Virus record (IMG/VR): IMGVR_UViG_2724679238_000007 | Location: 1-42,109 of that record | Direction: 5' to 3' (one strand) | DNA length: 42,109 nucleotides | Origin: a virus | Taxonomy: Duplodnaviria > Heunggongvirae > Uroviricota > Caudoviricetes | Shown: positions 1,876 to 31,920 of the stretch, piece by piece | How positions within the stretch are numbered: the stretch's first letter is position 1 | How the letters are laid out: the number at the start of each line of letters is the position of its first letter | Translations under genes and position numbers: made by a program | The notes under the pieces: model-generated | Told to the model about the DNA's origin: nothing | What the model saw: the letters and a program-made list of their open reading frames with translations, nothing else | Database searches by the model: none

Positions 1876-2988
1876 TTATTCAGCCGCCACCGGTTTTAAC
1901 AAGCCAGCATCGAGCAGTTTACGCGTCAACCACTGCTGGCCTTTCCCCGTTAATTGAGGCGTCAGCCGTATCTGGTAGCCATCTTCATCATCCAGCACCA
2001 CTTCTTTCACTGTGAAATATCCGGCGTTTATGTACTGCTGAAACGGTACATTTTTACGTCCGCCGGACGCAATCAGGATGCCGTTCTCCCGTAACCAGGC
2101 AAACAGCGCATTTTGCTTAAGTCCAACAACCTTTGCAAAATTCCCAATCAGGATCCCCTTCGCCACTGATACCCGATCGGCAAAATCGACTTTGGGTGCT
2201 GCGGCCACCAGTTGTTGATTTAGCTGGTGGGCCTTCTGTTCCAGTAGCTGCTTTTGTTCAGCCAGCTCGGCAGCCAGACGCAGAGCTTCTGGAAGCGTCT
2301 GGGGGATTGCGATCGGTTGCTGTTCTTTTTGTCGGAAGTAGCTGTCTTCCAGTTTTTCAAAGAATGCCCATGCTTCATTTGTGTCCACGATCTTAGACAT
2401 GCGTGCAGCGCCGCGCTCTGTCCAGAGTGTAAGGCTTCTGGCGTTCTTACCAACAGAGTAACTTCCGGTTACTCTGTTCTTAAATTCTCTTAATTTTAAA
2501 CCAGTTAGAAGAAAGTAATGCTTACCTTCTTCAAAGCGGTCAAGGTTGCGAGACAAATTGTTGCGAATATTGGCTTCATCGACCCCATACCCTCTAGCAA
2601 GAGTTTCGGTTGTCACGACACGTACTCCCTGCCATTCCAGAACGGGAATTTCATCCGGCTGATTCTGAACAACCACCAGTTCCGATTCCTGAACTGAAGG
2701 TGCATAAATTTTTTCTGATTTAACGTTAGTTGCTTTCATTCTGTGTGCCTCCTTGCGTGCTTCGGCTGCGACGGTTGCATAATTCAGATGCCCCTGTTCG
2801 AGCAGGTATTCACGAATATCAGACAGCAGAATGCGGTGAACCGCGTTCTTGTCCTTTCTCCGGTAAAGTTGTTTGGTGATCATGAAGTAGTTGGCAATCA
2901 CGCCCGGTATATCCCTGGTACTGATACAGGCTGTGTGCTGTTCAATTGCCTCGATCATCTCTTCACGGGTGACTAATGACGTTCTCAT
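1876..2988 (-). CDS. ant: phage antirepressor Ant (N-terminal ORF6N/Bro-N-like plus C-terminal KilA-C/ANT domain), copy 1
   Basis: 370 aa; C-terminus (AKVVGLKQNALFAWLRENGIL...YINAGYFTVKEVV...TGKGQQWL) is the KilA-C/ANT signature; start overlaps the icd-like stop by 4 nt; lies downstream of a C1 operator and a c4-like region, as in the P1 immI layout. Confidence 0.8.
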   Translation of the reverse strand: MRTSLVTREEMIEAIEQHTACISTRDIPGVIANYFMITKQLYRRKDKNAVHRILLSDIREYLLEQGHLNYATVAAEARKEAHRMKATNVKSEKIYAPSVQESELVVVQNQPDEIPVLEWQGVRVVTTETLARGYGVDEANIRNNLSRNLDRFEEGKHYFLLTGLKLREFKNRVTGSYSVGKNARSLTLWTERGAARMSKIVDTNEAWAFFEKLEDSYFRQKEQQPIAIPQTLPEALRLAAELAEQKQLLEQKAHQLNQQLVAAAPKVDFADRVSVAKGILIGNFAKVVGLKQNALFAWLRENGILIASGGRKNVPFQQYINAGYFTVKEVVLDDEDGYQIRLTPQLTGKGQQWLTRKLLDAGLLKPVAAE

Positions 2989-3206
2989 AGCCCCTCCTGA
3001 GCAGAAGCGTTAACAGTGAGGCACCAGTAACTGAGAGAATTGCGCAAATCGGTAGAAAAGCGAGCAGAGAAAATACAGGGAGCATCCGGAAGCTGAGAAC
3101 GTGCCTCATCTTCTGTTGGTGCGATAACGAAGTGATAGTGACGTTTTTGACAAGAATAGAAACGCCAGATGAATTCTTGGCGTGCGCAAGGATTGGCATT
3201 AACCAT
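2985..3206 (-). CDS. icd: Icd-like small protein (host cell-division inhibitor family by position), copy 1
   Basis: 73 codons starting at the internal ATG (MVNANPCARQEF...); same length and position as P1 icd; translationally coupled to ant; RBS overlaps a c4 target octamer. The 139-aa extension in the ORF track is not supported by the paralogue. Confidence 0.6.
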   Translation of the reverse strand: MVNANPCARQEFIWRFYSCQKRHYHFVIAPTEDEARSQLPDAPCIFSARFSTDLRNSLSYWCLTVNASAQEGL

Positions 3207-3242
3207 AGTTACGGCCTCATTCGTAGGTTTAACAACCTGCGA

Positions 3243-3330
3243 CCCGCTGCTAAACGGGTGGCAGGACGTGACGGGGTTAGCAGACTGGCACGAATGAAAC
3301 CAGCAGGCCGAAGCCTCCCCACCACGCCCC
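3243..3330 (-). ncRNA. c4: c4-type antisense RNA, copy 1 (boundaries approximate)
   Basis: Non-coding stretch between the operator/promoter and icd. It contains CACGAATG (3289-3296) presented between a CTGG/CCAG stem, complementary to CATTCGTA present both upstream (3402-3409) and at the icd RBS (3218-3225). It also contains a UUCG hairpin and a 7-bp CTGCTAA/TTAGCAG stem. Confidence 0.45.
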
Positions 3331-3507
3331 ACCATAATTTGGGCGTAACGCGGTTTTACGGACATAAAAATACCGCAATATCGGAAATCTGCGGTTGTCC
3401 GCATTCGTATTCAGGCTGCTAAACCCGGTCGCAGAATTTGCTACGACGGCGGAACTATAAGCCTGAACAACAGGAAGATCAATAGTCTGGCGTTCGATGG
3501 TAGTTTA

Positions 3508-3540
3508 TTTGCTCTAATAAATCAAATTTATTAGAGCAAT
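3508..3540. promoter_or_regulatory. pair of abutting, inverted C1-repressor operators controlling the c4-icd-ant (copy 1) promoter
   Basis: 3524-3540 is a perfect reverse match to ATTGCTCTAATAAATTT; 3508-3524 is a 14/17 forward match. Confidence 0.75.
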
Positions 3541-3586
3541 AAGCGGTGTCGTAAAAATCAATACAATCACAATCATATGAATAGAA

Positions 3587-4585
3587 TCAATCATTACCGC
3601 GCGACGGTTTCTGCGTGATAAACGTATCAAGCATCTTTTCCGCAATTGCCGACCAGGTGTGACACTGGACCTTTTCAGCATTTTTCACGCGATCAATGCG
3701 AGCAATAACCTCATCCCAATCAATCCGCGACTTGATAACCATATGGTTCACCAAAGCCAGGCGATCCGGCGGAAGACAATCGGGCGGCGTTAATATCAAC
3801 GCCCCACACATTGCCGCCTCAAGAACAGTTAATCCAAGGCTTTCGGGATGCGTAACGATAAAAACGTCACTCTTACGCAATTCAGCTGCAAATTCGGTTG
3901 CTGGTACCGGCGTCCGTCTGTATGGGGTTACCGATATATTCCCTGGATCAATGGTAATCAATCCGTCATCGGTCAACGTTCTGGCCTCATACGGAACGGT
4001 CAGACGCTGAAGGTTCATAAGGATACTTAAGGAGTGATCAAAACCACTAACATCAAATGCAGCGTGGTCTACAAAAATACGCAGAACATCGTCTGTTTTG
4101 GTTTCCAGATGGAACAGCTCCTGATTCGCTGCCCATCCAACATGTTTGTTAAAACGATTATGGCGCTCTAACCTGCCGGGATTATCCAGGTACCGCCAAG
4201 TATCATCGCGGACAGTAAAAGTAATATCGACTGGTGCCGAATCCAGCATAGAACCGTCGTATACCTGGGCTACCCATCCAGTGAATCGAAGACGCAGTTG
4301 CACGCCTATTTCCCTGGGCACCGTAGTAAAATACCGCAATCCTGGCGCTAAAATGGCTTTCGCAGAACACGAGGTCGCAGCGGTCAACACAGCTTCAACA
4401 TAATCCTCCGGGCTTTCGACGCCGGGGGAATATGGACGATGGTATTGCAATGTTACCCCAGCCTCACTAAAGGCGCAGGCCAGGTTATAAGCCCACATTT
4501 CCGTATATGTTTTCACATCACTGATGGCTTCAAATTTTCGCCCAATGATCAGGATGTTCATCGGCTTTTCCTCATTCCATTGCAT
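3587..4585 (-). CDS. Dbn-like protein with a GT-B glycosyltransferase-like C-terminal motif
   Basis: 332 aa; start overlaps the ban stop (TAATG); motif HPESLGLTVLEAAMCGALIL resembles the GT4 donor-binding E-x7-E region; position matches P1 dbn. An alternative start at 4561 has a better SD. Confidence 0.55.
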   Translation of the reverse strand: MQWNEEKPMNILIIGRKFEAISDVKTYTEMWAYNLACAFSEAGVTLQYHRPYSPGVESPEDYVEAVLTAATSCSAKAILAPGLRYFTTVPREIGVQLRLRFTGWVAQVYDGSMLDSAPVDITFTVRDDTWRYLDNPGRLERHNRFNKHVGWAANQELFHLETKTDDVLRIFVDHAAFDVSGFDHSLSILMNLQRLTVPYEARTLTDDGLITIDPGNISVTPYRRTPVPATEFAAELRKSDVFIVTHPESLGLTVLEAAMCGALILTPPDCLPPDRLALVNHMVIKSRIDWDEVIARIDRVKNAEKVQCHTWSAIAEKMLDTFITQKPSRGND

Positions 4586-6417: not shown

Positions 6418-6581
6418 CACTGTTCCTTCGAGGCTGTATTAAATATCGGCCATACCAATGTTACAGCTACTGCTACCAACGCCCCGTCGGATAAAATCGA
6501 CAGGATTGTGCTGGTGAAATCCACCAGCACAGATAGCACGAGAAAGACAAAAGCTAGAATTAAACGTGCTTTTATAACCAT
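6417..6581 (-). CDS. small membrane protein (54 aa), tciB-like by position
   Basis: MVIKARLILAFVFLVLSVLVDF...; start overlaps the TerB-like stop (TGATG), so three genes are translationally coupled in series. Confidence 0.35.
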   Translation of the reverse strand: MVIKARLILAFVFLVLSVLVDFTSTILSILSDGALVAVAVTLVWPIFNTASKEQ

Positions 6582-7006
6582 CAGATATACTGTTCCAGTG
6601 GCAATTGAAGAGCCTGGGCAATTTTCTTCAATTGCTCCTGTTCTTCAGCCCCAATGCCATCCTGGTCGGCAATATCAATACATAGGCACAGAACATCTAC
6701 CGCATCATTAGTCCCGGCCACATCAGCCAGCTCACGTAAAGCCTGGGCATTAGCTCGGCGCGGCGAGGCTTCATATTGAGCGCGAATATTGGCGCTCATC
6801 TGGGCAATTTCACCGGAGAACGGCGCAAAGGCAGGAAGCGCTGCAATGGTTTTTTCCAATACTGCAATTTCTTTCGCATCGCAGGTGCCGTCAGAGTATG
6901 CAATGGAATATGCGCCCCAGACGGTCGCTTCCACCGCATCACGGTTTTCCATCTTCTTGACTCCGCCAGCCGCTTTGCGGAATTTCTTTTTGAGAATGCC
7001 GAGCAT
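6581..7006 (-). CDS. TerB-domain protein (tellurite-resistance TerB family; P1 TciA-like)
   Basis: 141 aa with TerB-like helical pattern (AVLEKTIAALPAF...DVLCLCIDIADQDG...EEQEQLKKIAQAL). Confidence 0.65.
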   Translation of the reverse strand: MLGILKKKFRKAAGGVKKMENRDAVEATVWGAYSIAYSDGTCDAKEIAVLEKTIAALPAFAPFSGEIAQMSANIRAQYEASPRRANAQALRELADVAGTNDAVDVLCLCIDIADQDGIGAEEQEQLKKIAQALQLPLEQYI

Positions 7007-7267
7007 TTATTAACCTCATTACTGGTTGGGAAATAAGGTTGCGGTGCCGGGTGCCTCCCGGTGTCCTTTGGCTGGTTATCCACCGTGGACGGGGAAAAGG
7101 AGAAATTAATGGACTGATATAACCATTTCCCCGCGTGCGCTTAGCCGCATTCACCGCAATGGTAAGAGCACTTGGCTGGCTGGGCGGCGATGACGCCTGT
7201 ACGCATTTGGTGATCCGGTTCTGCTTCCGGCATTCGCTTAATTAGCCAAATACTCTTAACGTTGCGC

Positions 7268-7354
7268 TGGTGGAGAGTAATGGAATCGAACCATCATCGC
7301 TTGCGCAATGGGACGGTTTTCAAGACCGTTTGAGCACCATGCTCCCTACTCTCC
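7268..7354 (-). tRNA. class II tRNA-Ser (anticodon UGA), candidate
   Basis: 87 nt: perfect 7-bp acceptor GGAGAGT/ACTCTCC, anticodon arm ACGGT-CTTGAAA-ACCGT, 17-nt variable arm with a 5-bp stem, T-loop TTCGATT, encoded CCA; D-arm is atypical (4-bp stem, 5-nt loop). Confidence 0.5.
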
Positions 7355-7586
7355 GGCCGTTGTGGTGACCGGTACTGAATCTCCGGCATACGGTGCAGCC
7401 AATTAGGACTACGGACGATCACCGCTCGCGAAAGGGAAGATTTGCGGCCGCATTTCCCTAACATCCAAGAAAGCTATCGCATCAGTCTGCGAATCCACCA
7501 CAACGGAAAGAGCATTTATGGCTCGCATCGCGGGAAAAAGCCCACGGTAGAGAGTCGAACTCTACAAATACTCTTACCTGTTGTGC

Positions 7587-7719
7587 TGGTGCCGGTTAAC
7601 GGATTCGAACCGCTGACCTCTGGCCTAACATCGAATCGTTGTCATTTGACCAGCAAGGCTGTCTACCGAAGTAGAAACGATGCTTTGGCTCTCGTGCTCT
7701 CCCACTGAGCTAAACCGGC
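7587..7719 (-). tRNA. atypical 133-nt tRNA-like gene with Thr-like acceptor, D and T arms but about 57 extra nt in place of a canonical anticodon arm (intervening sequence or pseudogene)
   Basis: Perfect acceptor GCCGGTT/AACCGGC plus A-CCA, D-arm TAGCTCAGTGGGAGAGC, T-arm AGCGG-TTCGAAT-CCGTT; the middle contains a UUCG-capped hairpin (TCTAC-TTCG-GTAGA) and no canonical 5-bp/7-nt anticodon stem-loop; 2 nt from tRNA-Asn. Confidence 0.4.
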
Positions 7720-15023: not shown

Positions 15024-15094
15024 TTATCCACAGCATAGATCCAATAAACAGATCCAAAAGAGACCCCTAGAAGATCCAAATAAGATCCCGGATC
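15024..15094. promoter_or_regulatory. plasmid origin core: consensus DnaA box plus a cluster of five GATC (Dam) sites
   Basis: TTATCCACA at 15024-15032; AGATCCA/AGATCCC heptamers and a GATC between 15037 and 15094; lies immediately upstream of the iterons and repA, as in P1 oriR. Confidence 0.65.
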
Positions 15095-15135
15095 GCTGCA
15101 GGCCGCGCCATGTCTGGCCTGAAACGTGATCAACA

Positions 15136-15239
15136 TTGACTATATGCGATTTTATGTTGACTGTACACGATTTATTGTTGACTACACGCGATTTTATGTT
15201 GACTATACGCGATATAAACATTGACTGTACGCGATTTTA
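15136..15239 (+). repeat. five direct 19-bp iterons at 21-22 bp spacing (incC-like), upstream of repA
   Basis: TTGACTATATGCGATTTTA, TTGACTGTACACGATTTAT, TTGACTACACGCGATTTTA, TTGACTATACGCGATATAA, TTGACTGTACGCGATTTTA at 15136, 15157, 15178, 15199, 15221. Confidence 0.8.
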
Positions 15240-15315
15240 AAGCCTGAATATTCACAGCTGTTGATAACAGCCATCCAAATTGACGTCAGGCCGCGCCACA
15301 CATGGAGAAACCACG

Positions 15316-16200
15316 ATGCCGGAAGAAAGTAAAGGCTTCCTTAGCGTTGAAGAAGTTGCAGGAAATACAGGAGAAATCCACAGCCTGAAACCCAATAACA
15401 ACAGCACTATACAACCCATCGCTTTGTTGCGCTTAGGTGTGTTTGTGCCAACCTTAAAATCTACCAATGTGGCACTACGTCGCGGATCGTCAGTTACTAC
15501 AAACACAACGAACGCAACCGAAGAACTATCAAGCCTCAAAATTGTTGAGCAGGAAGGCTATGAGGGAATTGAAATTCATGGTCCACGCCTGGATATGGAT
15601 ACTGATTTTAAGGTGTGGGTTGGCATAACCTCCGCGTTGTTTGACTATGCACCTGATGATGACGGTATAATTACCCTGCCATTCTCCGAGTTTGCCGATC
15701 GATGCGGCTATCCACGTAAGCGCCTTTCAAAGGCGTTCCGTAAAAGTATTGATGACTCTCTGACACGCATTCAGCAGACAGTTGTCAAATTCCGCTTCCC
15801 GGCGGCAAAAGGTCATCTCAATAACATTAACGTCAACTTGTTGGCATATAGCAGCCTGAATACCGAGCTTGATGTTATCGAGATCCAGCCGCAGAAACAG
15901 CTATCTGAACTTTACTATGTTGACTATAAGCGAATCCTGAAGCTGAAGATGCTGGATAAGCTCGGGCGCAAAGAGACGGCCAAGGTACTGTATACATTCT
16001 TTGAGGCTCTACCCGCCAACCCAGCACCTGTCAGCATTGAGCGCCTTAGAGCAAGGCTTAACCTCAAATCATCCGTTAGCGTGCAAAATAGCGTTATCAG
16101 AAAAGCCATGAAAGATTTGGAAGCTATTGAATATCTTAAATTTTCAGAGATAAAAAACGGCAGGAAAATCGGCTTCCAGATCCATAAGCGCAATCCATAA
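15316..16200 (+). CDS. repA: iteron-binding plasmid replication initiator RepA
   Basis: ATG at 15316 with GGAGAAA SD; 294 aa; conserved blocks (ALLRLGVFVP, GPRLDMDTDFKVW, LPFSEFADRCGYPRKRL, C-terminal HKRNP) match the P1/RepFIB RepA family as recalled; flanked by iterons on both sides. Confidence 0.8.
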   Translation: MPEESKGFLSVEEVAGNTGEIHSLKPNNNSTIQPIALLRLGVFVPTLKSTNVALRRGSSVTTNTTNATEELSSLKIVEQEGYEGIEIHGPRLDMDTDFKVWVGITSALFDYAPDDDGIITLPFSEFADRCGYPRKRLSKAFRKSIDDSLTRIQQTVVKFRFPAAKGHLNNINVNLLAYSSLNTELDVIEIQPQKQLSELYYVDYKRILKLKMLDKLGRKETAKVLYTFFEALPANPAPVSIERLRARLNLKSSVSVQNSVIRKAMKDLEAIEYLKFSEIKNGRKIGFQIHKRNP

Positions 16201-16202
16201 TA

Positions 16203-16458
16203 TTGACTATATGCGATAGCGAGAAGTTGACTATAGGCGACATTCGTTGACGCTGGTGGATTTTTGCTGGCGTCAATATTCTGTAAGTCGCTATTGAGAT
16301 GGATTTTAGGGTCATTTCATCGCGTATAGTCAACGTTTCTCCCGACAATATCTTACATAGTCGATCTTTGGTGGAGTTAAATCGACTACAGTCAACTTTT
16401 GACTGTGGTCATATCGCGCATAGTCAACTATTCACATTAACCTTCGCGCATAGTCAAC
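16203..16458. repeat. iteron array downstream of repA (incA-like), about 8 copies in both orientations
   Basis: TTGACTATATGCGAT (16203), TTGACTATAGGCGAC (16227), and inverted copies such as CGCGTATAGTCAA (16321), ATCGACTACAGTCAA (16381), ATCGCGCATAGTCAA (about 16414), CGCGCATAGTCAA (16446). Confidence 0.7.
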
Positions 16459-16492
16459 ATTTGCGCGGTTCTCATCAAGCAGTGGTATTGAT

Positions 16493-17302
16493 ATGCAAGA
16501 AGAGAAACAACACTACCTCTACGTTCTGGTGCCGGAGAACGGAGATACTTTTAAAATCGGCATTTCATGTGGTCCATTGGCACGGTTTAAAGGGCTACAA
16601 GTGAGTCCCGATTTTGCGCTTTCACGGGTCTATCGTGGTACGCGTTTGGCAATGGTTAATCTTGAGCGGGCTTTACACGCAACCTTTTTCCCCTGGAATG
16701 CGCCGTGGGAGAAAAGCGCCGGTGGCGGGCATACTGAATGGTTTACACGAGAGTGTCTTGATAAGGTTTTGGCTCATATCGAATATCTAAATGATATGTG
16801 GGGAGGGATTCTCGAGCGCATTAAGTCGAATGATTTACTTCAGCGTCCAGTAGATGCTGCTCGCTCTTTCGAAAAAGAACTGGATGTTACTTCTATCGTG
16901 ACTTTCAAAGATGACGCAGGAATGAGGGACGTGGCTTATGTCTCCATATCTGGCTATGACCCGGACGCGATCCGCGCTCAATGTGAATTGCTGAAAGCAA
17001 TGTTTATGCTTCGGACTAAATATCCCTGGGAGACAGGGCGGGTGTGCTTCCCTATGGAAGAGTTAACCGCCACCATTGATTCCCAGCTTTACCACGATAA
17101 TCCAGAGAAGTTTTTTAGCCTTTTAACCGGTAATGGGCTTAACTGTGTGTCCGGGCTGGGGCGAAGTAGAATCCAACATGCCTCGCTCTTCGGTCCCTTC
17201 TTTTACGATCGACACGGGTACTTTGAGGCTGAACTTCCGGCGCTTACGCGTGCTATAGATACTATCGATTTCGAACGATTATTCGCTGCTCTTAGCAAAT
17301 AA
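16493..17302 (+). CDS. T5orf172 (GIY-YIG-like, MUG113) domain protein with a C-terminal domain of unknown function
   Basis: 269 aa; N-terminus YLYVLVPENGDTFKIGIS...RVYRGTR...LERALHATF...GHTEWF matches the T5orf172 pattern as recalled; inserted between the downstream iterons and the par operon. Confidence 0.55.
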   Translation: MQEEKQHYLYVLVPENGDTFKIGISCGPLARFKGLQVSPDFALSRVYRGTRLAMVNLERALHATFFPWNAPWEKSAGGGHTEWFTRECLDKVLAHIEYLNDMWGGILERIKSNDLLQRPVDAARSFEKELDVTSIVTFKDDAGMRDVAYVSISGYDPDAIRAQCELLKAMFMLRTKYPWETGRVCFPMEELTATIDSQLYHDNPEKFFSLLTGNGLNCVSGLGRSRIQHASLFGPFFYDRHGYFEAELPALTRAIDTIDFERLFAALSK

Positions 17303-17309
17303 CACTGAT

Positions 17310-17330
17310 GCCCCTGAACGGGGCTTTTTT
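17310..17330 (+). terminator. intrinsic terminator
   Basis: GCCCC-tgaac-GGGGC hairpin followed by TTTTTTG. Confidence 0.7.
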
Positions 17331-17470
17331 GTGCCCTCCTTGCAACGCTCAATCGTGCAAAATGAACCAAACATGCAGAGAATGCTATGTACAAGCATCT
17401 GCGCATACATTATTATTTTATGTAGCATTTTTAATTAAATTCAAAAATACAGCATAAAGGATGACTTTCG

Positions 17471-18667
17471 ATGAGTGATTCCAGCCAGCTTCACAAGGTT
17501 GCTCAAAGAGCAAACAGAATGCTCAATGTTCTGACTGAACAAGTACAGTTGCAAAAGGATGAGCTACACGCGAACGAGTTTTACCAAGTCTATGCGAAAG
17601 CGGCACTGGCAAAATTGCCTCTACTGACTCGAGCGAACGTTGACTATGCCGTAAGTGAAATGGAAGAAAAGGGTTATGTTTTCGATAAACGCCCTGCTGG
17701 CTCTTCAATGAAATATGCGATGTCAATTCAGAACATCATTGACATATATGAACATCGCGGAGTGCCAAAATACCGGGATCGCTACAGCGAAGCGTATGTG
17801 ATTTTCATCTCCAATCTTAAAGGCGGTGTGTCAAAAACTGTATCGACGGTTTCTCTGGCGCATGCAATGCGTGCTCACCCTCATCTTCTGATGGAAGATT
17901 TAAGGATTCTGGTTATTGACCTTGATCCGCAATCTTCAGCAACGATGTTTTTAAGCCATAAACACTCTATTGGTATCGTAAACGCAACATCTGCACAGGC
18001 TATGTTGCAGAATGTAAGCCGTGAAGAGCTGTTAGAGGAGTTTATTGTTCCTTCTGTTGTACCTGGGGTTGACGTTATGCCTGCGTCGATTGACGATGCC
18101 TTTATTGCATCCGATTGGAGAGAGCTGTGCAATGAGCATCTACCGGGTCAGAACATCCATGCTGTCCTGAAAGAAAATGTGATTGATAAGCTGAAGAGCG
18201 ATTATGATTTTATCCTCGTTGATAGTGGTCCTCACCTTGACGCCTTCCTGAAAAATGCTTTGGCCTCGGCCAATATACTGTTTACACCTCTGCCACCAGC
18301 AACGGTCGATTTCCACTCATCGCTTAAATACGTTGCCCGCCTTCCTGAGTTGGTGAAACTCATTTCGGATGAAGGCTGCGAGTGCCAGCTTGCGACTAAC
18401 ATTGGTTTTATGTCCAAGTTGAGTAACAAGGCAGACCATAAGTATTGCCATAGCCTGGCGAAAGAAGTTTTCGGTGGGGATATGCTCGATGTCGTCCTCC
18501 CTCGCCTTGATGGTTTCGAACGCTGCGGCGAGTCCTTTGACACTGTTATTTCTGCTAATCCGGCAACGTATGTTGGTAGTGCTGACGCACTGAAGAACGC
18601 GCGTATCGCCGCTGAAGATTTTGCAAAAGCAGTTTTTGACCGTATTGAATTTATCAGATCTAACTAA
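17471..18667 (+). CDS. parA: partition ATPase ParA (Walker-type, large N-terminal HTH form)
   Basis: 398 aa; deviant Walker A (NLKGGVSKTVS); N-terminus MSDSSQLHKVAQRANRMLNVL... matches P1 ParA as recalled. Confidence 0.95.
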   Translation: MSDSSQLHKVAQRANRMLNVLTEQVQLQKDELHANEFYQVYAKAALAKLPLLTRANVDYAVSEMEEKGYVFDKRPAGSSMKYAMSIQNIIDIYEHRGVPKYRDRYSEAYVIFISNLKGGVSKTVSTVSLAHAMRAHPHLLMEDLRILVIDLDPQSSATMFLSHKHSIGIVNATSAQAMLQNVSREELLEEFIVPSVVPGVDVMPASIDDAFIASDWRELCNEHLPGQNIHAVLKENVIDKLKSDYDFILVDSGPHLDAFLKNALASANILFTPLPPATVDFHSSLKYVARLPELVKLISDEGCECQLATNIGFMSKLSNKADHKYCHSLAKEVFGGDMLDVVLPRLDGFERCGESFDTVISANPATYVGSADALKNARIAAEDFAKAVFDRIEFIRSN

Positions 18668-18683: not shown

Positions 18684-19685
18684 ATGTCAAAGAAAAACAG
18701 ACCAACAATTGGGCGAACCCTTAATCCTTCAGTATTAAGCGCATTTGATAGTTCCTCTGCCTCTGGTGATCGGGTTGAGCAGGTATTCAAGTTATCAACA
18801 GGTCGCCAGGCCACATTCATTGAGGAGGTAATCCCTCCGAACCGGGTAGAAGATGATACCTTTGTTGATCAGCATAACAACGGACGTGATCAGGCAGCTC
18901 TTACACCAAAATCATTAAAAAGCATCAGAAGCACCATTAAACATCAGCAATTTTACCCTGCAATAGGTGTTAGACGGACTACAGGGAAAATTGAAATTTT
19001 GGATGGTTCCCGGCGTCGAGCTTCTGCCATCTTAGAGAACGTAGGGTTGCGGGTTTTAGTCACGGACCAGGAGATCAGCGTTCAGGAAGCGCAAAATTTA
19101 GCGAAAGACGTTCAGACAGCATTGCAGCACAGCATTCGAGAAATAGGTCTGCGTTTGATGCGAATGAAAAATGATGGAATGAGTCAGAAGGATATTGCCG
19201 CTAAAGAAGGGCTATCTCAGGCGAAGGTCACGCGTGCTCTTCAGGCTGCGAGCGCTCCGGAAGAATTAGTCGCTCTTTTCCCTGTGCAGTCGGAATTAAC
19301 CTTTTCGGACTACAAAACGCTTTGCGCTGTTGGCGATGAAATGGGGAATAAGGATTTAGAGTTTGATCAGCTTATTCAAAACATATCCCAGGAAATAAAC
19401 GACATCTTATCCATTGAAGAAATGGCCGAAGATGAAGTGAAAAATAAAATCCTTCGCCTGATAACAAAGGAAGCCTCGTTACTCACGGATAAAGGCTCTA
19501 AAGATAAGTCTGTAGTTACTGAATTATGGAAATTTGAGGATAAAGATCGTTTCGCAAGGAAGCGTGTGAAAGGCCGTACCTTTTCCTATGAGTTTAATCG
19601 TCTCTCCAAAGAGTTACAGGAAGAACTTGACAGGATGATTGGGCATATCCTTAGAAAGAGCCTCGATAAAAAGCCGAAGCCTTAA
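18684..19685 (+). CDS. parB: partition protein ParB (centromere-binding)
   Basis: 333 aa; MSKKNRPTIGRTLNPS..., HTH region and C-terminal dimerisation region match P1 ParB as recalled; immediately followed by parS. Confidence 0.95.
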   Translation: MSKKNRPTIGRTLNPSVLSAFDSSSASGDRVEQVFKLSTGRQATFIEEVIPPNRVEDDTFVDQHNNGRDQAALTPKSLKSIRSTIKHQQFYPAIGVRRTTGKIEILDGSRRRASAILENVGLRVLVTDQEISVQEAQNLAKDVQTALQHSIREIGLRLMRMKNDGMSQKDIAAKEGLSQAKVTRALQAASAPEELVALFPVQSELTFSDYKTLCAVGDEMGNKDLEFDQLIQNISQEINDILSIEEMAEDEVKNKILRLITKEASLLTDKGSKDKSVVTELWKFEDKDRFARKRVKGRTFSYEFNRLSKELQEELDRMIGHILRKSLDKKPKP

Positions 19686-19687
19686 AC

Positions 19688-19775
19688 TTTCGCCATTGAA
19701 ATTTCATTTGTAACCATCTGTTTTTAAAGTAAATTCATCTAAAATTTCAAGGTGAAATCGCCACGATTTCACCTT
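19688..19775. promoter_or_regulatory. parS: parS centromere site (box B TCGCCA and box A ATTTCAC motifs flanking an A/T-rich IHF-type core)
   Basis: TCGCCA at 19690-19695 and 19758-19763; ATTTCAAGGTGAAATCGCCACGATTTCAC at 19744-19772, which I recall as the P1 parS right arm. Confidence 0.85.
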
Positions 19776-25250: not shown

Positions 25251-25275
25251 AGCTCCTTCGGGAGCTTTTTTTATA
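25251..25275 (+). terminator. intrinsic terminator
   Basis: AAAGCTCC-ttcg-GGAGCTTT hairpin followed by TTTTTTTA. Confidence 0.75.
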
Positions 25276-25400
25276 ACTATTTTATATAAAAATGCATCGA
25301 TAACATTGTCTGGAGTTTTATGTTAGATTATTAATGTTCTAATAAACTACAATTATTGAGGTAGATGTTTGTGCCTGTACTGTTAAAGGGGGACTCTAAA

Positions 25401-25997
25401 ATGGCTGTGATTCCAATGTCGTACTCCCCGGGCACTGTCGCTCGTCGATTTTCGATCCTGGACGGTGTAATCATCCAGGGGGTGCTTTACCAGGTTATAT
25501 GGGATTCCAAAACCCCATTTGCGGCTGTAATAGAGGCTGCGCCTTCTGTTATCGATGGTGATATGCGGCATAAGGTTGTCGCTACTCTTGAACTTCAACG
25601 TCGCCCGCAACTTGAAGGCGTACTGGTAAGGAAGTTCTGGGAGGATAGCGATGTTGCCCAGATTGAAGGTATCGTGGTTGATGGAACTGTCCGGGATGTC
25701 GGTTTAGCTACTTTTGTTTACGAAACCGTAGCCTCAAAAGCTGGTGTTGTTTTGCTCAGTGATAATGAGCAATACGAAGGTGGAAAAGCTCTTTGGCAAC
25801 ACATCGCCCGTCGCTCTTCCGAGCTAAAAGTGTTTATCCTCGACACCGATGCCGCTCAGTATTACCCGTTTGACGGCGAACGTGTTTGCTATGACGGGGT
25901 AAGTATTCCTGAATCCGAGATATGGAGTGAACACCCAGATCGAAGTAAGCATGGGGTTGTTCTGGTTGCTGAATCTATAACTGGAAAGGCGGCATAG
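25401..25997 (+). CDS. hypothetical protein
   Basis: ATG at 25401 with a G-rich SD; 198 aa; preceded by an AT-rich region containing a degenerate C1-operator-like core (TTCTAATAAA). Confidence 0.45.
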   Translation: MAVIPMSYSPGTVARRFSILDGVIIQGVLYQVIWDSKTPFAAVIEAAPSVIDGDMRHKVVATLELQRRPQLEGVLVRKFWEDSDVAQIEGIVVDGTVRDVGLATFVYETVASKAGVVLLSDNEQYEGGKALWQHIARRSSELKVFILDTDAAQYYPFDGERVCYDGVSIPESEIWSEHPDRSKHGVVLVAESITGKAA

Positions 25998-26184
25998 CAG
26001 TGCAGTAAAAAATTCCTTGCTCCTTGACAGAGGAGAGGATTAATCTAAGTACGCTAAGCATAGGTATGGCCCCGGTTAATGTTAAGCGTTGTGCGGGACG
26101 CATAATGTTTACTGGGGCTTTCTTCTATCTGCTTTTCGGGTAATACCTGAAGCTGATAGCCTCAAGCACACCGCAGCGGGTGTA

Positions 26185-26436
26185 TCAATGTCTGGTTTTT
26201 TTTCTATAGAAATCACCTGGAAGGGTGAATATCCACATCAGAAGACATGTTGCAGCAAACATGATCCCTAATGGCCAGAAGATGCCAAAAAAAATCATTA
26301 TCCAAAAACGAACCCACCAGGCCATTTCTGCATTGGCTCGCAAAATATATCGACTTAATGCGTATATCAGTCCACCAATTAGTATATAGATGGGAATAGA
26401 TGCCAGGATAGTCATCGCGTTAGTCTCAATGAGCAT
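26185..26436 (-). CDS. small Trp-rich integral membrane protein (hypothetical)
   Basis: 83 aa, two or three predicted TM segments; lies downstream of the lom-like terminator and would need its own promoter. Confidence 0.3.
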   Translation of the reverse strand: MLIETNAMTILASIPIYILIGGLIYALSRYILRANAEMAWWVRFWIMIFFGIFWPLGIMFAATCLLMWIFTLPGDFYRKKTRH

Positions 26437-26454
26437 AACGAATATCGCCAGAGC

Positions 26455-26486
26455 AATGTATAAATCCCTCTGCGCCGGGCAGAGGG
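26455..26486 (-). terminator. intrinsic terminator of the lom-like gene
   Basis: Perfect 8-bp stem CCCTCTGC/GCAGAGGG with a 5-nt loop, followed on the minus strand by ATTTATACATT; 9 nt after the stop. Confidence 0.6.
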
Positions 26487-26495
26487 ACTAAATAG

Positions 26496-27011
26496 TTAAA
26501 ATCGGTAACCGACACCAAGCATCCAAATGCTATTGCTTAGATCACCTGGTTTAGAACGTTCATACGAGAGATCAACAGCAAACTGCGGAGCTGGGTTAAA
26601 TTGAAGCCCAAGTCCATAAGCAAAATCGGTTCCAAAGCCAGCATATGACTGTCCATTCAGTTTTGCTGTTGCATCCGCATGGCTTAAACCCACCAAACCG
26701 TATGCACTCAGCAATTCATTGAATCTGTATGATGGACCAAAAGTAAATGAGGCATACTCAACCTTGGCTTTGGCGGCATTCCATAGGTTTGTGTTTGACT
26801 TTTCGTAAGTGACCGAAGCTAATCCACCCCACGTAGAATCCATTTCGTAGCGATATTTAATATTCACGCCTTTTGGATCTTTTATATCTCCGCCTTTAAC
26901 CGTTGCGCTTCCTTGGGCAAAGTCTAAGGAGAGTGTGTGCTGATATGCGGAGGCAGTCCCAGCAACCCCCAAGGCACATGCCAGAAGGGCCGTTAAAACT
27001 ACTTTTTTCAT
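26496..27011 (-). CDS. Ail/Lom/OmpX/PagC-family 8-stranded outer-membrane beta-barrel protein
   Basis: 171 aa; signal peptide MKKVVLTALLACALGVAGTASA; alternating amphipathic strands; C-terminal ...LGVGYRF ending in aromatic Phe. Confidence 0.8.
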   Translation of the reverse strand: MKKVVLTALLACALGVAGTASAYQHTLSLDFAQGSATVKGGDIKDPKGVNIKYRYEMDSTWGGLASVTYEKSNTNLWNAAKAKVEYASFTFGPSYRFNELLSAYGLVGLSHADATAKLNGQSYAGFGTDFAYGLGLQFNPAPQFAVDLSYERSKPGDLSNSIWMLGVGYRF

Positions 27012-27106
27012 GGAAAAAGTTACCTATAAAAACGTTAAAAATAATACTGGTGACAAAATAGTGTGTATTGAGCGTTAAATACACGTAAAGATTCTATCAT
27101 TCGCGA

Positions 27107-27949
27107 TCATCCGCGAAAACCAGTTGGAATATAAAATTCCTTTTCTTTTCTTGTAGATAGGACCATATCCAGAGCTTCGTTTACCGTCATGCAATGCGGC
27201 AGATTATCGAAGTTTGATATCCCGCCCATATCAGGAGAACGCTTGTTCTTCAGGTAAGCATATTTCCGCGCTGCCGCCTCTACTTTCTGCTTGAACTCAT
27301 GTTTTTGAGAGCGTTTTTTGGATAACCGCAGATTGTCAGCCTTTGCTTTTGCCTCAGCGATCCATGAAGTCAATTTTTTGAGTCTGGTCGTTCCGGCATC
27401 GCCGGAAACTGATCTTTTTGTTTTTTTAATTTGTGACTTCTTATTCTTTATTGCCACGTCATCCTGACAGGGGGAGTGGGTATCATTTTGACATGGGGGT
27501 GTGGATAAAAAATCAAATAAAGCCAATGTCTTAGCGAGAACGGCTTTAACCTTGGTTGCGGCTGAAGAGATCTTTAATTTGCTTTCAATTAGCGCATTTT
27601 TGGCTTGTTGTGCGAAGGCCAAAAAGGATGGTGTAAACCGGTACAGGTTAGCGCGGCGTTCACGGTGATCGCCGATAACAATCTCTACCGACAGGATTCC
27701 TTTGTTTACAGCTTCACGGAATGCGCGAACGACGGTTGATTGGCTATAACCAGTTTCTGCCGCGATCATGCGGTGAGGCTTGTGAATGAAGTATTCACTG
27801 GTTGTTGCCGCGAGATTTGCACATTGCGACAGGATATGCCCGGCGCTACGGGATAGACCGGAGTGTGTTACAAAGCAGGCCAATTCATAGCCAGAAAAAG
27901 TAAAATCGCTCATCGTTATACAGCTCAGGAAAGTGACTTTAGCCAGCAT
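27107..27949 (-). CDS. repL: RepL-like lytic replication protein (candidate)
   Basis: 280 aa; HTH-like segment (MIAAETGYSQSTVVRAFREAVNKGIL) and basic C-terminal half; immediately downstream of kilA under a C1 operator, the arrangement of the P1 kilA-repL lytic replicon. Confidence 0.5.
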   Translation of the reverse strand: MLAKVTFLSCITMSDFTFSGYELACFVTHSGLSRSAGHILSQCANLAATTSEYFIHKPHRMIAAETGYSQSTVVRAFREAVNKGILSVEIVIGDHRERRANLYRFTPSFLAFAQQAKNALIESKLKISSAATKVKAVLAKTLALFDFLSTPPCQNDTHSPCQDDVAIKNKKSQIKKTKRSVSGDAGTTRLKKLTSWIAEAKAKADNLRLSKKRSQKHEFKQKVEAAARKYAYLKNKRSPDMGGISNFDNLPHCMTVNEALDMVLSTRKEKEFYIPTGFRG

Positions 27950-27978
27950 TACAATGCTGGTGGTTCTTACTACGTCTG

Positions 27979-28779
27979 TTAGCGCGTTGCCGCGACAGGT
28001 ACCAGCACACCAGCATCAAGCAATCGCTTCATTAGCCACTGCTGACCTTTGCCGGTTATACGAGTCGTGAAAGAAATCCTGCTTCCATTGCTTGTATCGA
28101 TCACGGTTTCTTTGAGGGTGAAATACCCACGGGATATGTATTCTTGTTTTGGGACGTTCCTGCGTTCACCGGTTGCGATCAGAATTCCGTTATCACGCAA
28201 CCAGGTGAAGAGATAGTTTTGGCCCAGGCCGAGCACTTTGGCATAGTTGCCGATTAGAACCCCGCTGGCGGTAGCAACGCGTTCGGCGAATTCGACTTTA
28301 GGTGCATCCATCAGCATTTTTTGCTCCAGCCGTTGCTTTTGCTCTGCCAGGTCGGCAGCCAAACGGAGAGCTTCTGGGAGGCTCTGCGGAATAGCAGGTT
28401 GTAATCTTCCAGCTCGATAGTCGATAAATGTCTGGTTTACCTTCAGCCGAAACGCGGGAGAAATCCAACCAGCGTACTCCACTGCGAGCAATTCATGGGC
28501 AAAAGTGCCGCCGCCACGGCCTTCGAACGAAACTATGCAATTCTGCATAGTTTCTTTTTCAAGCTCTTCGATGAGCTGTTTAGCTGACAGCGTTCTTAGC
28601 CATTGAGCTGGCGCTTTATGGGCACCGAGTCCGCTCGCTCTGTGTAGAGCATTAAGGTTGTAACGGCCAGCGCGGTCGGTCGTAATTTCAACACCACAAA
28701 TAACAGGCAGAGTGGTTGAAGGATCGACATTTTGATGAAGGTTTGATATATTCATATCCGCATTGAATGTTTGTTGCAT
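27979..28779 (-). CDS. kilA: KilA protein (KilA-N plus KilA-C domains)
   Basis: 266 aa; N-terminal KilA-N-like region (GRYNLNALHRASG...AQWLR) and C-terminal KilA-C region shared with both Ant copies. Confidence 0.75.
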   Translation of the reverse strand: MQQTFNADMNISNLHQNVDPSTTLPVICGVEITTDRAGRYNLNALHRASGLGAHKAPAQWLRTLSAKQLIEELEKETMQNCIVSFEGRGGGTFAHELLAVEYAGWISPAFRLKVNQTFIDYRAGRLQPAIPQSLPEALRLAADLAEQKQRLEQKMLMDAPKVEFAERVATASGVLIGNYAKVLGLGQNYLFTWLRDNGILIATGERRNVPKQEYISRGYFTLKETVIDTSNGSRISFTTRITGKGQQWLMKRLLDAGVLVPVAATR

Positions 28780-28848
28780 TTTTTCTCCAAATTTGCATCA
28801 ACCTTCAATCACCAGCTCGAAATGGTGATTCTTTGCACTTAGAAAACG

Positions 28849-28865
28849 AAATTTATTAGAGCAAA
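28849..28865. promoter_or_regulatory. C1-repressor operator upstream of kilA-repL
   Basis: AAATTTATTAGAGCAAA is a 16/17 reverse match to the C1 consensus. Confidence 0.7.
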
Positions 28866-28942
28866 TTTTTCTGGCTCGATCCAGATCGGGTTGGTCGATC
28901 TGCTCAGAAACCTGCCAGTTTGCTGGCAGGTTTTTTCTTTTG

Positions 28943-29986
28943 TTAACCTATTGCTACTGGTTTTAACAAACCAGCATCAAGTAGCTTGCGAGTTAACCAC
29001 TGCTGGCCTTTACCCGTTAATTGGGGCGTCAGCCGTATCTGGTAGCCATTTTCATCATCCAGCACCACTTCTTTCACCGTGAAATACCCGGCGTTAATGT
29101 ACTGCTGGCGCGGTACGTTTTTGCGCGCACCAAAAGCCATGAGAATGCCGTTCTGGCGCAACCATGAGAAAAGGGCGTTTTGCTTAAGTCCAACGACCTT
29201 TGCAAAGTTCCCGATCAGGATTCCATTAGCCGCTGATACCCGGTCGGCAAAATCGACTTTAGGGGCTGCGGCCACCAGCTGTTGTTCCAACTGCATTTTC
29301 TGTTCTGCCAACTCGGCAGCCAGGCGTAGAGCGTCTGGTAATGTTTGGGGGATCGATGGGGCAGGGGAGTTTGCCTGCTGCAATTCTTCCAGTTTGTCGA
29401 TCAGCGAACGGCGGACTGCTTTTGACTCGCGCGCGGCGACTCGCAGGGCTTGTTTGTAGGTCATGGTTATGACAACCATAGGCGTACCGCCACCTGGCGG
29501 CACGGTTGCACTTTTTGTGTAACCGTCCTCACCTTCTAATTCGTCGAGTATTTTTTTGATGAATTTGTTGTTCCGAACCTCTGGTTCCCCACATAACTTA
29601 CGCGCTTCATTGACCATCTTTAACAGCGTCTGGCTGTCGATTGTGTCTCCAGTGTTGGAGATAACATTCACAGCTGGTGATGGCGTAGCTGAAGCAACAG
29701 GTGCTGGTTTTTCAACATTCAAATTATTACCGGTCATTCTGCGCGCCTCCTTTCTCATTTCTGCTGCCACTGTTGCGTAACGTAGACGTCCTTGTTCAAT
29801 CAAATAATCCCTGATCTCGGCTATCAGTAGCTTGTTGATCACAGCCTTATCTGTTCGGGTATAAAAACGTCTGGTTATCATGAAATAGTTGGCAATTGCG
29901 CCGGGGATCTCCCGTGTCGGCATACAGGTTGTATGCAGGGCGATCGCTTCGGCTATTTCATTACGGGTGACGAGAGGTTTTTTCAT
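28943..29986 (-). CDS. ant: phage antirepressor Ant, copy 2
   Basis: 347 aa; N- and C-termini near-identical to copy 1 with a divergent middle; overlaps the icd-like stop by 4 nt. Confidence 0.8.
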   Translation of the reverse strand: MKKPLVTRNEIAEAIALHTTCMPTREIPGAIANYFMITRRFYTRTDKAVINKLLIAEIRDYLIEQGRLRYATVAAEMRKEARRMTGNNLNVEKPAPVASATPSPAVNVISNTGDTIDSQTLLKMVNEARKLCGEPEVRNNKFIKKILDELEGEDGYTKSATVPPGGGTPMVVITMTYKQALRVAARESKAVRRSLIDKLEELQQANSPAPSIPQTLPDALRLAAELAEQKMQLEQQLVAAAPKVDFADRVSAANGILIGNFAKVVGLKQNALFSWLRQNGILMAFGARKNVPRQQYINAGYFTVKEVVLDDENGYQIRLTPQLTGKGQQWLTRKLLDAGLLKPVAIG

Positions 29987-30204
29987 AAATCCCCCTGAAC
30001 GTCGGCAGAGAAGGGGAGGTTCCAGTAACTAAGTGAATTGCGCGAGTTAGTTGAAAAACGGGCAGTAAAAATGCAGGGGCCATCAGGCAATTGAGAGCGT
30101 GCTTCGTCTTCTGTTGCTGCGATGACGAAGTGATAGTGGTGTTTTTTACAGGAATAGAAACGCCAGATGAATTCTTGGCGTGCGCAAGGATTGGCATTAA
30201 CCAT
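29983..30204 (-). CDS. icd: Icd-like small protein, copy 2
   Basis: 73 aa (MVNANPCARQEFIWRFYSCKKHHYHF...), paralogue of 2985..3206. Confidence 0.6.
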   Translation of the reverse strand: MVNANPCARQEFIWRFYSCKKHHYHFVIAATEDEARSQLPDGPCIFTARFSTNSRNSLSYWNLPFSADVQGDL

Positions 30205-30240
30205 AGTTACGGCCTCACAATCAGGTTTAACAACCTGCTA

Positions 30241-30328
30241 CCCGCTGCTAAACAGGTGGCAGGACGTGACGGGGTTAGCAGACTGGCGATTGTGAAACCA
30301 GCAGGCCGAAGCCTCCCCATCACGCCCC
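30241..30328 (-). ncRNA. c4: c4-type antisense RNA, copy 2, with an altered recognition octamer (boundaries approximate)
   Basis: Same architecture as copy 1, but the loop octamer is CGATTGTG (30287-30294), complementary to CACAATCA at 30216-30223 (icd RBS) and 30400-30407. Confidence 0.45.
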
Positions 30329-30518
30329 ACCATAATTTGGGCGTAACGCGGTTTTACGGACACAAAAATACCGCAATATCGGATATCTGCGGCTGTCCGC
30401 ACAATCATTCAGGCTGCTAAACCCGGTCGCAGAATTTGCTACGACGGCGAAACTATAAGCCTGAACGATTAAAAGGTCAATATGATGCGAAAAGATAGCA
30501 TTCGCGACTTAAAAATAC

Positions 30519-30535
30519 AAATTTATTAGAGCAGA
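30519..30535. promoter_or_regulatory. C1-repressor operator upstream of c4-icd-ant copy 2
   Basis: AAATTTATTAGAGCAGA is a 15/17 reverse match to the C1 consensus. Confidence 0.65.
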
Positions 30536-30816
30536 TGAGTGTCGTGCAATAGATGTATTATTTGTGATGAAAAATAATGCAGAGGGATATTGTTACTTTA
30601 AGATGGATATCAATAGTCGATACATAAATTAAGTTAGCAATAAACTATTAACTTAAGAAATAATGCAGATGGTGAACTTATCTCTGACTTTTCAGCTATA
30701 CACAATAAGTTAGGGATAGCTTATAAAAAGTTGATTAATTGATATAAGTCAATGGGAGTATTCTTGTTTACTTTCCGTTCTCGTGGTAACTTCTCGCCGG
30801 TTTTTGTTTTTCTGGG

Positions 30817-31338
30817 ATGATTCTTATGTCTAAAAAGTATACTTTATGCGCTCTTGTTGTATCTGCAATTCTTCTTTCTGGGTGTCAATCTAGCGGTGCT
30901 GATTATGCTGCCGATGTTTATGATACCGCTCAATTGAATTCGAAGCAGGAAACAAAGACAGTCAATATTATCTCTGTGCTTCCAGCTAAAGTGAAAGTTG
31001 ATAATAAAGCTAATAAAGAAGCGGCACAGACATTTGGTGCGGTACTGGGAGCTGTTGCTGGGGGCGTTGCCGGTTATAATGTTAAAGGCACATCGACACT
31101 GGGTGCTGTAGCTGGCGGTACTGGTGGTGCGGCTCTTGGTGCAGCGGCTGGTTCTTTGGTTAGTGATAAAACAATTGTTGAAGGTGTTTCACTGACTTAT
31201 AAAGAAGGAACTAAGGTGTTCACTTCAACTCAAGTTGGTAAAGCATGCCAGTTTACAACGGGGCTTGCTGTGCTTATTTCAACTAAAGATAATGAAACTC
31301 GAATTCAGCCAAATGCTACTTGTCCAGAAAAGAAATAA
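30817..31338 (+). CDS. lipoprotein with a glycine-zipper (GxxxG-rich) segment
   Basis: 173 aa; lipobox LLSGC; segment GAVLGAVAGGVAGY...GAVAGGTGGAALGAAAGS; AT-rich codon usage. Confidence 0.6.
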   Translation: MILMSKKYTLCALVVSAILLSGCQSSGADYAADVYDTAQLNSKQETKTVNIISVLPAKVKVDNKANKEAAQTFGAVLGAVAGGVAGYNVKGTSTLGAVAGGTGGAALGAAAGSLVSDKTIVEGVSLTYKEGTKVFTSTQVGKACQFTTGLAVLISTKDNETRIQPNATCPEKK

Positions 31339-31341
31339 TTT

Positions 31342-31881
31342 ATGAATAAAATTATTTTATTTCTAATCTTTTCTACGTTTAGTGTAGGCACTGCCTTGGC
31401 TAACTCGTTGCAAAGTCAAATTGCTGCTATTGCTCAAGCGGAAAATGAAGGGCGAGCTAAAGAGCAGCAAGCTGAGGATGCCAGAAAAGAACTTATTCGC
31501 CAACAAGCACAAGCTGAACGTATTAGAAGAGAAAAAGCAGCATCTGCCGCTGCTGCACGCGAAAAACAGCGTGTTGCTGCAGAAAATGAACGTAGAGCGA
31601 AACGAGAAGCCGAGCTAGCAAATGACAAGAAGCGAGATCAAGCTTATGAGGATGAGCTTCGCAAGCTGCAACTCGAAAGCATGAAACTCGAACTGCAAGC
31701 AAAAGCGGCTCGTGTCCAGCGAGAAAACGATTTTATAGAGCAGGAGTTGAAGGAGAGAGCAGCTAAGACAGATGTAATTCAGTCTGAGGCTGATGCAAAT
31801 AGAAATATTTCTACAGGAAGTAAAGATTTACTGCAAAGCGAAGGAAAAGCTAGAGAGAAGAAAGCTAGCAGTTGGTGGTAG
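31342..31881 (+). CDS. secreted, highly charged coiled-coil protein
   Basis: 179 aa; signal peptide ending ALA-NS; long Glu/Arg/Lys/Ala/Gln-rich helical region; starts 3 nt after the lipoprotein gene. Confidence 0.55.
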   Translation: MNKIILFLIFSTFSVGTALANSLQSQIAAIAQAENEGRAKEQQAEDARKELIRQQAQAERIRREKAASAAAAREKQRVAAENERRAKREAELANDKKRDQAYEDELRKLQLESMKLELQAKAARVQRENDFIEQELKERAAKTDVIQSEADANRNISTGSKDLLQSEGKAREKKASSWW

Positions 31882-31920
31882 TAATCACTACGATTGCGAG
31901 CATACTGTCACAAATGACAA

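Follow-up and report, generated by a model that had tools for sequence, protein, structure and literature searches.

A p0111-type sister of the P1 replicon, very probably the maintenance replicon of a P1-like phage-plasmid, with its own RepA–iteron pair

The region examined here is very probably the low-copy maintenance replicon of a P1-like phage-plasmid, of the p0111 type, a lineage that is sister to the P1 (IncY) replicon in the P1/RepFIB branch of initiators. The window, by which we mean the whole analysed stretch of 42,109 nucleotides (IMG/VR record IMGVR_UViG_2724679238_000007), carries a repA gene that is 98.8% identical over 885 bp to repA of pO111_2 (NC_013370 = AP010962), with 292 of 294 amino acids shared. 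AP010962.1 is the p0111 reference gene in PMC11165635, and a repA nearly identical to it is what PlasmidFinder types as p0111; moreover, the replicon sits in a P1-like backbone with upfA on one side and parA on the other, the repA position expected for this type. A preliminary description made from the sequence had read the region as P1-type architecture with non-P1 iterons. This interpretation is correct and has already been published, and the replicon is a real, very common and catalogued type. Our additions are an iteron-level map covering both origin and control array of the p0111 type, which appears unpublished (no paper combining "p0111" and "iterons" was found in the searchable literature), the family-wide conservation of the host-factor module but not of the iteron block, and a caveat on compatibility that comes from the P1-type parS.

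Layout of the origin, repA and the control iterons

The comparison was made with the fully annotated P1 record and its sequence. In the oriR-incC-repA-incA region of P1 and P7, a DnaA box, five GATC 7-mers, a GC spacer, five 19-bp iterons, repA and the control iterons follow one another, and the same order was found in the window. The features are listed by coordinates and strand.

15024–15032, +: single perfect DnaA box TTATCCACA, from the sequence and its alignment with the P1 DnaA site
15037–15096, +: five GATC 7-mers (Dam sites), homologous in alignments to the annotated P1 "Dam methylation sites 1-5"
15097–15119, +: GC-rich spacer CTGCAGGCCGCGCCATGTCTGGC, the final P1-alignable stretch ahead of the iterons
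15136–15239, +: five direct 19-bp origin iterons, incC-like, starting at 15136, 15157, 15178, 15199 and 15221
15259–15267, −: DnaA-box-like TTATCAACA, one mismatch, between the origin iterons and repA
15316–16200, +: repA, 294 aa, p0111-type iteron-binding initiator with two predicted winged-helix domains (Pfam, BLASTP, predicted fold)
16203–16245, +: two direct copies in the incA-like array, first bases at 16203 and 16227
16315–16457, −: five inverted iterons of the downstream array, first bases at 16333, 16364, 16395, 16427 and 16457
16493–17302, +: 269-aa ORF of the T5orf172/GIY-YIG family (Pfam; phrog_2876), between the control iterons and parA
17310–17334, +: terminator-like hairpin and T run, 3' of the 269-aa ORF
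17471–18667, +: parA, P1-type
18684–19685, +: parB, P1-type
19690–19772, +: parS, P1-type

All the elements that the preliminary description had placed in the origin (DnaA box, five GATC heptamers, five direct iterons upstream of repA) were recovered, and repA lies between the two iteron sets as it had stated. The perfect TTATCCACA occurs twice in the whole 42-kb window, and one of the two copies is the box at 15024–15032. P1 has two DnaA boxes in tandem on this side, whereas the window has one perfect box, and the right-hand box of the window is inverted relative to that of P1. Among the GATC 7-mers, three read AGATCCA (15037–15043, 15050–15056 and 15072–15078), one AGATCCC (15083–15089) and one GGATCGC (15090–15096). 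These five sites lie within 59 bp, a sixth GATC (15128–15131) falling outside the cluster, which is presumed to be the region of opening and sequestration.

The origin iterons share the core TTGACTRYRYGCGAT and are spaced by 21, 21, 21 and 22 bp, exactly as in P1 incC; five direct 19-bp iterons 5' of repA, set roughly two helical turns apart, are characteristic of the P1 family. The consensus proposed earlier, TTGACTRYAYRCGATWTWA, holds for the origin copies; across all copies, the central two positions are R,Y rather than A,Y. A search with the 15-mer iteron core gave 13 matches at ≤2 mismatches against 0.9 expected, a number reached by none of 100 shuffles, and 12 of the 13 matches fall inside 15136–16457. 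Downstream of repA, direct copies come first and inverted copies about 31 bp apart follow, in P1 and the window alike. P1 has three direct and six inverted copies (30–31 bp apart) and the window two and five (30–32 bp; successive spacings 31, 31, 32 and 30 bp), that is nine control iterons against seven. About eight iterons in both orientations had been described here; both orientations are indeed present, and the count is seven, one copy being degenerate. In layout, the region thus agrees with the annotated P1 oriR/incC-repA-incA even in its spacings. The flanking genes are also shared, and the window has an extra 269-aa ORF before parA that P1 is without.

Three further repeats were observed in this region. 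An iteron-like site, TTGACTATAAGCGAA, lies inside the repA coding sequence at 15920–15934 (+; codons YVDYKRI) with a PWM score of 17.8, far above background. Its 15-mer is unchanged in six p0111 elements and in the variant replicon L006 described below, though adjacent codons of L006 show synonymous changes; P1 has no iteron at the equivalent position. Between the direct and inverted control iterons, an imperfect inverted repeat (TTGACGC...GCGTCAA, 16247–16276) has a left arm resembling the iterons of a Proteus replicon (TTGACGCTAG...), and L006 retains the left arm and lacks the right one. Finally, a 12-nt GC-rich motif, CAGGCCGCGCCA, occurs at 15099–15110 in the origin spacer and at 15287–15298 directly 5' of the repA ribosome-binding site, so that its two copies flank the five origin iterons on either side. 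The second copy is kept in all P1-like p0111 elements examined and is missing from the P1 and L006 leaders.

Replication specificity and incompatibility with P1

The L006 variant replicon (P0003; L006 3700–5130) encodes a RepA 85% identical to that of the window and occurs in E. coli and E. marmotae, on ~90-kb plasmids with phage tail genes. It has the same DnaA box, GATC 7-mers, GC spacer, iteron core (TTGACTRYRYGCGAT) and 21, 21, 21, 22 bp spacing, with a perfect TTATCCACA where the window has TTATCAACA (15259–15267). Its neighbourhood differs, lying between a transglycosylase gene and tail genes with no adjacent upfA, GIY-YIG ORF or par, and it has six control iterons against the seven of the window. 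This variant probably shares the p0111 replication specificity.

Comparison with P1 gave a different result for the iterons. The P1 iteron ATGTGTGCTGGAGGGAAA had no match in the window at ≤3 mismatches, and no window-type iteron was present in 16 kb of P1 covering its replicon. Iteron blocks of the window and P1 are 40% identical (window and L006, 87%; L006 and P1, 37%), and the two RepA proteins are 42% identical (BLASTP, E = 9e-71). The iterons therefore differ from those of P1, as the preliminary description had stated, and the alignment with P1 that it had put forward as a check returned neither identical iterons nor an identical RepA. Over the 96 aligned columns of the DnaA/GATC/GC-spacer module, identity is 79% between the window and P1, 85% between the window and L006, and 73% between L006 and P1. 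As judged from these alignments, divergence from P1 is concentrated in the RepA–iteron pair, and the host-factor module (DnaA box, GATC 7-mers and GC spacer) and par stay P1-like.

A left recombination junction inside oriR at 15118, where P1 homology stops on the left in BLAST, was considered and dropped. The DnaA/GATC module accompanies the 85% variant among unrelated genes, and the window module resembles that of the variant (85%) more than that of P1 (79%). It therefore belongs to the conserved equipment of the replicon family, and on this comparison P1 likeness in the left half of the origin is a family feature kept under host-factor constraint rather than a recombination scar.

The mode of action proposed here is taken from established knowledge of P1 plasmid replication, from which the biochemical steps and the incompatibility phenotype are extrapolated. 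RepA monomers would bind the five phased origin iterons, and, with host DnaA bound at one or more flanking boxes, RepA would open the adjacent A+T-rich region with its Dam-methylated GATC repeats, the methylation state of which would gate initiation. The seven downstream iterons would act by titration of RepA and by pairing with the origin ("handcuffing"), holding the copy number near one, and RepA bound at the origin iterons would repress its own gene. Specificity would then reside in the RepA–iteron pair, fully diverged from P1. When the iterons and the + strand beyond them were scanned for a consensus sigma-70 promoter that could serve repA, none was detected, so autorepression by promoter occlusion is put forward by analogy only; every iteron contains a −35-like TTGACT.

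The partition functions had been called P1-identical. They are P1-type; strict identity holds for the parS boxes (the A boxes and the two TCGCCA B boxes), and ParA and ParB are 99.7% and 97.3% identical to those of P1 (NC_005856). The P1 annotation names three incompatibility determinants, incA and incC for replication control and incB at parS. A P1-type parS and ParB should preserve incompatibility with P1 at the level of partition (incB). Any distinct incompatibility specificity towards P1 would be limited to replication control (incA/incC), and overall compatibility with P1 is not implied by a distinct RepA–iteron pair.

In practice the element may still be incompatible with P1 through its P1-type parS and ParB, and probably through immunity, which would leave "distinct incompatibility" half true; for and against, we find this evenly balanced. 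It is favoured by the identical parS boxes, by a ParB 97% identical to that of P1 and by the explicit statement of partition-mediated incompatibility (incB) in the P1 annotation. Against it, partition incompatibility is weaker than incompatibility of the replication-control type, and published authors regard coexistence of IncY and p0111 elements as possible (PMC7969092, PMC11165635). A distinct replication incompatibility of IncY and p0111 is likewise an already published view, reached by inference (PMC7969092, PMC9603915, PMC11165635); the searchable literature yielded no incompatibility, replication or copy-control experiment on p0111 replicons. Whether two P1-like phage-plasmids can reside together in one cell depends on their replicon types, and since P1-like elements carry ESBL, mcr-1 and virulence genes, replicon type shapes their spread and recombination. 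Under natural conditions, a parS of the P1 type in both elements should restrict compatibility with P1.

Two observations concern the par genes of relatives. In the record of a laboratory "P1" isolate, OP279344 (L014 5477–7644), the par operon is ~65% identical in nucleotides both to that of the window and to that of NC_005856, so par and rep modules reassort independently among P1-like genomes. ParA and ParB of RCS47 and SJ46 were described as P7-like and distant from P1 (PMC5241659); contrary to this, ParA of both is 100% identical to that of the window, itself 99.7% identical to ParA of P1 NC_005856.

The non-P1 block, the downstream array and the initiator

In BLAST against P1, homology runs to 15118 and returns at ~17369, so the non-P1 block is 15119–17368, 2250 bp in place of 1491 bp of P1. 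Its 269-aa ORF was found in 401 PLSDB plasmids, all at ≥90% identity, with no relatives elsewhere; this is about as many as carry the p0111 replicon (399), although the two lists were not compared one against the other. The ORF is absent from P1 and the 85% variant, split in pO111_2 and shortened in SJ46, and the last two cases show that replication does not need it. Such an ORF could be selfish, travelling as a passenger, or could drive cassette exchange. In keeping with the latter, the 2.25-kb block (iterons, repA, array and nuclease-family ORF) might be a mobile "specificity cassette" that swaps with the IncY cassette via conserved flanks, an idea that we consider improbable. Recombination would take place in the DnaA/GATC module and upfA at the left end and in the par promoter at the right end, and the linked nuclease might promote conversion in the fashion of a homing endonuclease. 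If this were true, IncY and p0111 siblings would be replication-compatible and partition-incompatible, because parS stays P1-type, and co-infection would favour cassette exchange over stable coexistence.

The downstream repeats could also be decayed remnants or a second origin rather than a copy-control locus. One copy, 16364(−), is degenerate (TCGACTATGTAAGAT), and the number of repeats varies, with seven here, nine in P1 and six in L006. The degenerate copy, however, fits the 30–32-bp register of the inverted copies exactly, is conserved in six related elements, and has a good iteron at the equivalent position of the variant replicon. The position of the array, its direct-then-inverted order and its ~31-bp phasing match P1 incA, iteron positions are the same across six p0111 elements that differ by 2–3% elsewhere, and the array comes without a DnaA/GATC module. 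Remnants or a second origin are thus very unlikely, and a copy-control array is preferred.

For repA, the ATG start of the 294-aa protein has a GGAG 8 nt upstream and is shared with RefSeq in near-identical plasmids. A 306-aa ORF with a TTG start is simply the longest mechanical ORF. RepA scored 27.3 with Pfam Rep3_C (cut-off 21.1) and 22.0 with Rep3_N, just below the cut-off of 22.4, and matched phrog_775 at E = 2.6e-134. NCBIfam gave no match for RepA, the 269-aa ORF or P1 RepA. A PDB sequence search with RepA returned nothing under E = 0.39, so structure prediction and a fold search were used. The AlphaFold model (44 homologues, pLDDT 72, pTM 0.74) has about 80 disordered N-terminal residues, and Foldseek matched it to RctB domains 2-3, RepE, pi and pPS10 RepA at E = 3e-7 to 9e-4 with probability 1.0. 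The model suggests the two-winged-helix fold of RepE (mini-F), pi (R6K), RepA (pPS10) and RctB domains 2-3 (Vibrio chromosome 2), at a sequence identity of just 10–14%. Homology and predicted fold together identify RepA as a Rep_3 iteron-binding initiator and a homologue of P1 RepA.

RepA homologues fall into steps of identity: ~390 plasmids at ≥99%, a few variants at 85–94%, one Proteus lineage at 53% and a very large RepFIB-like group at 44–49%, with none between 53% and 85%. In PLSDB, ~395 records reach ≥95% and three more 80–95%. P1 RepA, at 42%, is no closer to the window RepA than the RepFIB group is. The Proteus plasmid replicon (P0008; L008 3610–5414), whose RepA is 53% identical to that of the window and 39% to that of P1, follows the same origin plan (DnaA box, GATC-like 7-mers, five iterons) with different iterons. 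In place of an inverted array, a tandem array with a 43-bp period and 11.4 copies lies 3' of its repA, built from two iteron-like units that alternate.

Capture of a RepFIB (IncFIB) replicon from an F-type or Klebsiella plasmid would agree with database records that use the name "RepFIB replication protein A" and with the thousands of homologous RepFIB-like plasmid proteins. RepFIB-type replicons of IncF and Klebsiella plasmids do have homologous initiators, with different iterons. The best proteins outside p0111 and its 80–95% variants, however, are 44–49% identical, no nearer than P1 RepA, and the gap from 53% to 85% lies between. PLSDB carriers of the window RepA are mostly ~90–130-kb Escherichia and Salmonella plasmids, P1-like in every context examined. 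The comparison with RepFIB that had been suggested at the outset thus speaks against a RepFIB replicon, and such a capture is very unlikely. The last alternative, a plain P1/P7 (IncY) replicon with an iteron difference that is only apparent, has the layout, the flanking genes and several GenBank records named "phage P1" on its side, and is refuted by a RepA 42% and an iteron block 40% identical to those of P1 and by the reciprocal absence of iterons, an IncY replicon having the P1-type iteron ATGTGTGCTGGAGGGAAA and a near-identical RepA.

Distribution of the p0111 type and the remaining window

The replicon region is 97–99.7% identical in 12 phage records (including SJ46, RCS47, JL22 and phi456) and 399 PLSDB plasmids, the closest matches being Escherichia albertii plasmids such as pEA16-1_1 (99.7%). 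The p0111 elements pO111_2, SJ46, RCS47, JL22 and phi456 have the same iteron positions, the same placement between upfA and parA and the linked GIY-YIG ORF; the window shows no difference of substance from this type, and its 269-aa ORF is intact. The non-P1 block was found in 419 of 5426 complete E. coli genomes, and a genome-contig search returned a single locus, a 100%-identical Escherichia sp. contig.

These results agree with earlier reports. SJ46 RepA was found in 2017 to be just 42% identical to P1 RepA (PMC5241659). Two replicase families at the same position, fitting IncY and p0111, were described in 2021, and joint maintenance was inferred to be possible (PMC7969092). Replacement of repA (IncY) by repA' (p0111) and an unknown gene was reported in 2022, p0111 making up 24 of 55 P1-like elements (PMC9603915), and a 2024 study of Salmonella counted 132 p0111 against 94 IncY elements with ~17 switches on the tree (PMC11165635). 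PMC10879196 is also among the literature cited for identification of the p0111 type. A 2026 preprint on strain UTAK-22 mentions IncY and a "pO111 replicon" on one plasmid, with no usable evidence on compatibility. The distinction between IncY and p0111 flavours of P1-like elements is already routine in typing. Database names of the initiator are wrong or inconsistent ("replication helicase", "RepFIB replication protein A", "RepB family"), and MOB-suite types the closest plasmid as "IncHI1B".

The remaining window is P1-like at 92–97% identity, and P1 homology is absent or weak (~78–80%) at 1886–3593, 6546–7695, 25272–27136 and 30534–31909. Segment 1886–3593 matches the P1 icd/ant region, for which a ~96% match also exists at 27137–30533, and from these matches it looks like a second, diverged copy of that region. 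The other three segments appear to fall in known variable regions of P1-like elements (tci, rlfA-rlfB-pmgF and sim).
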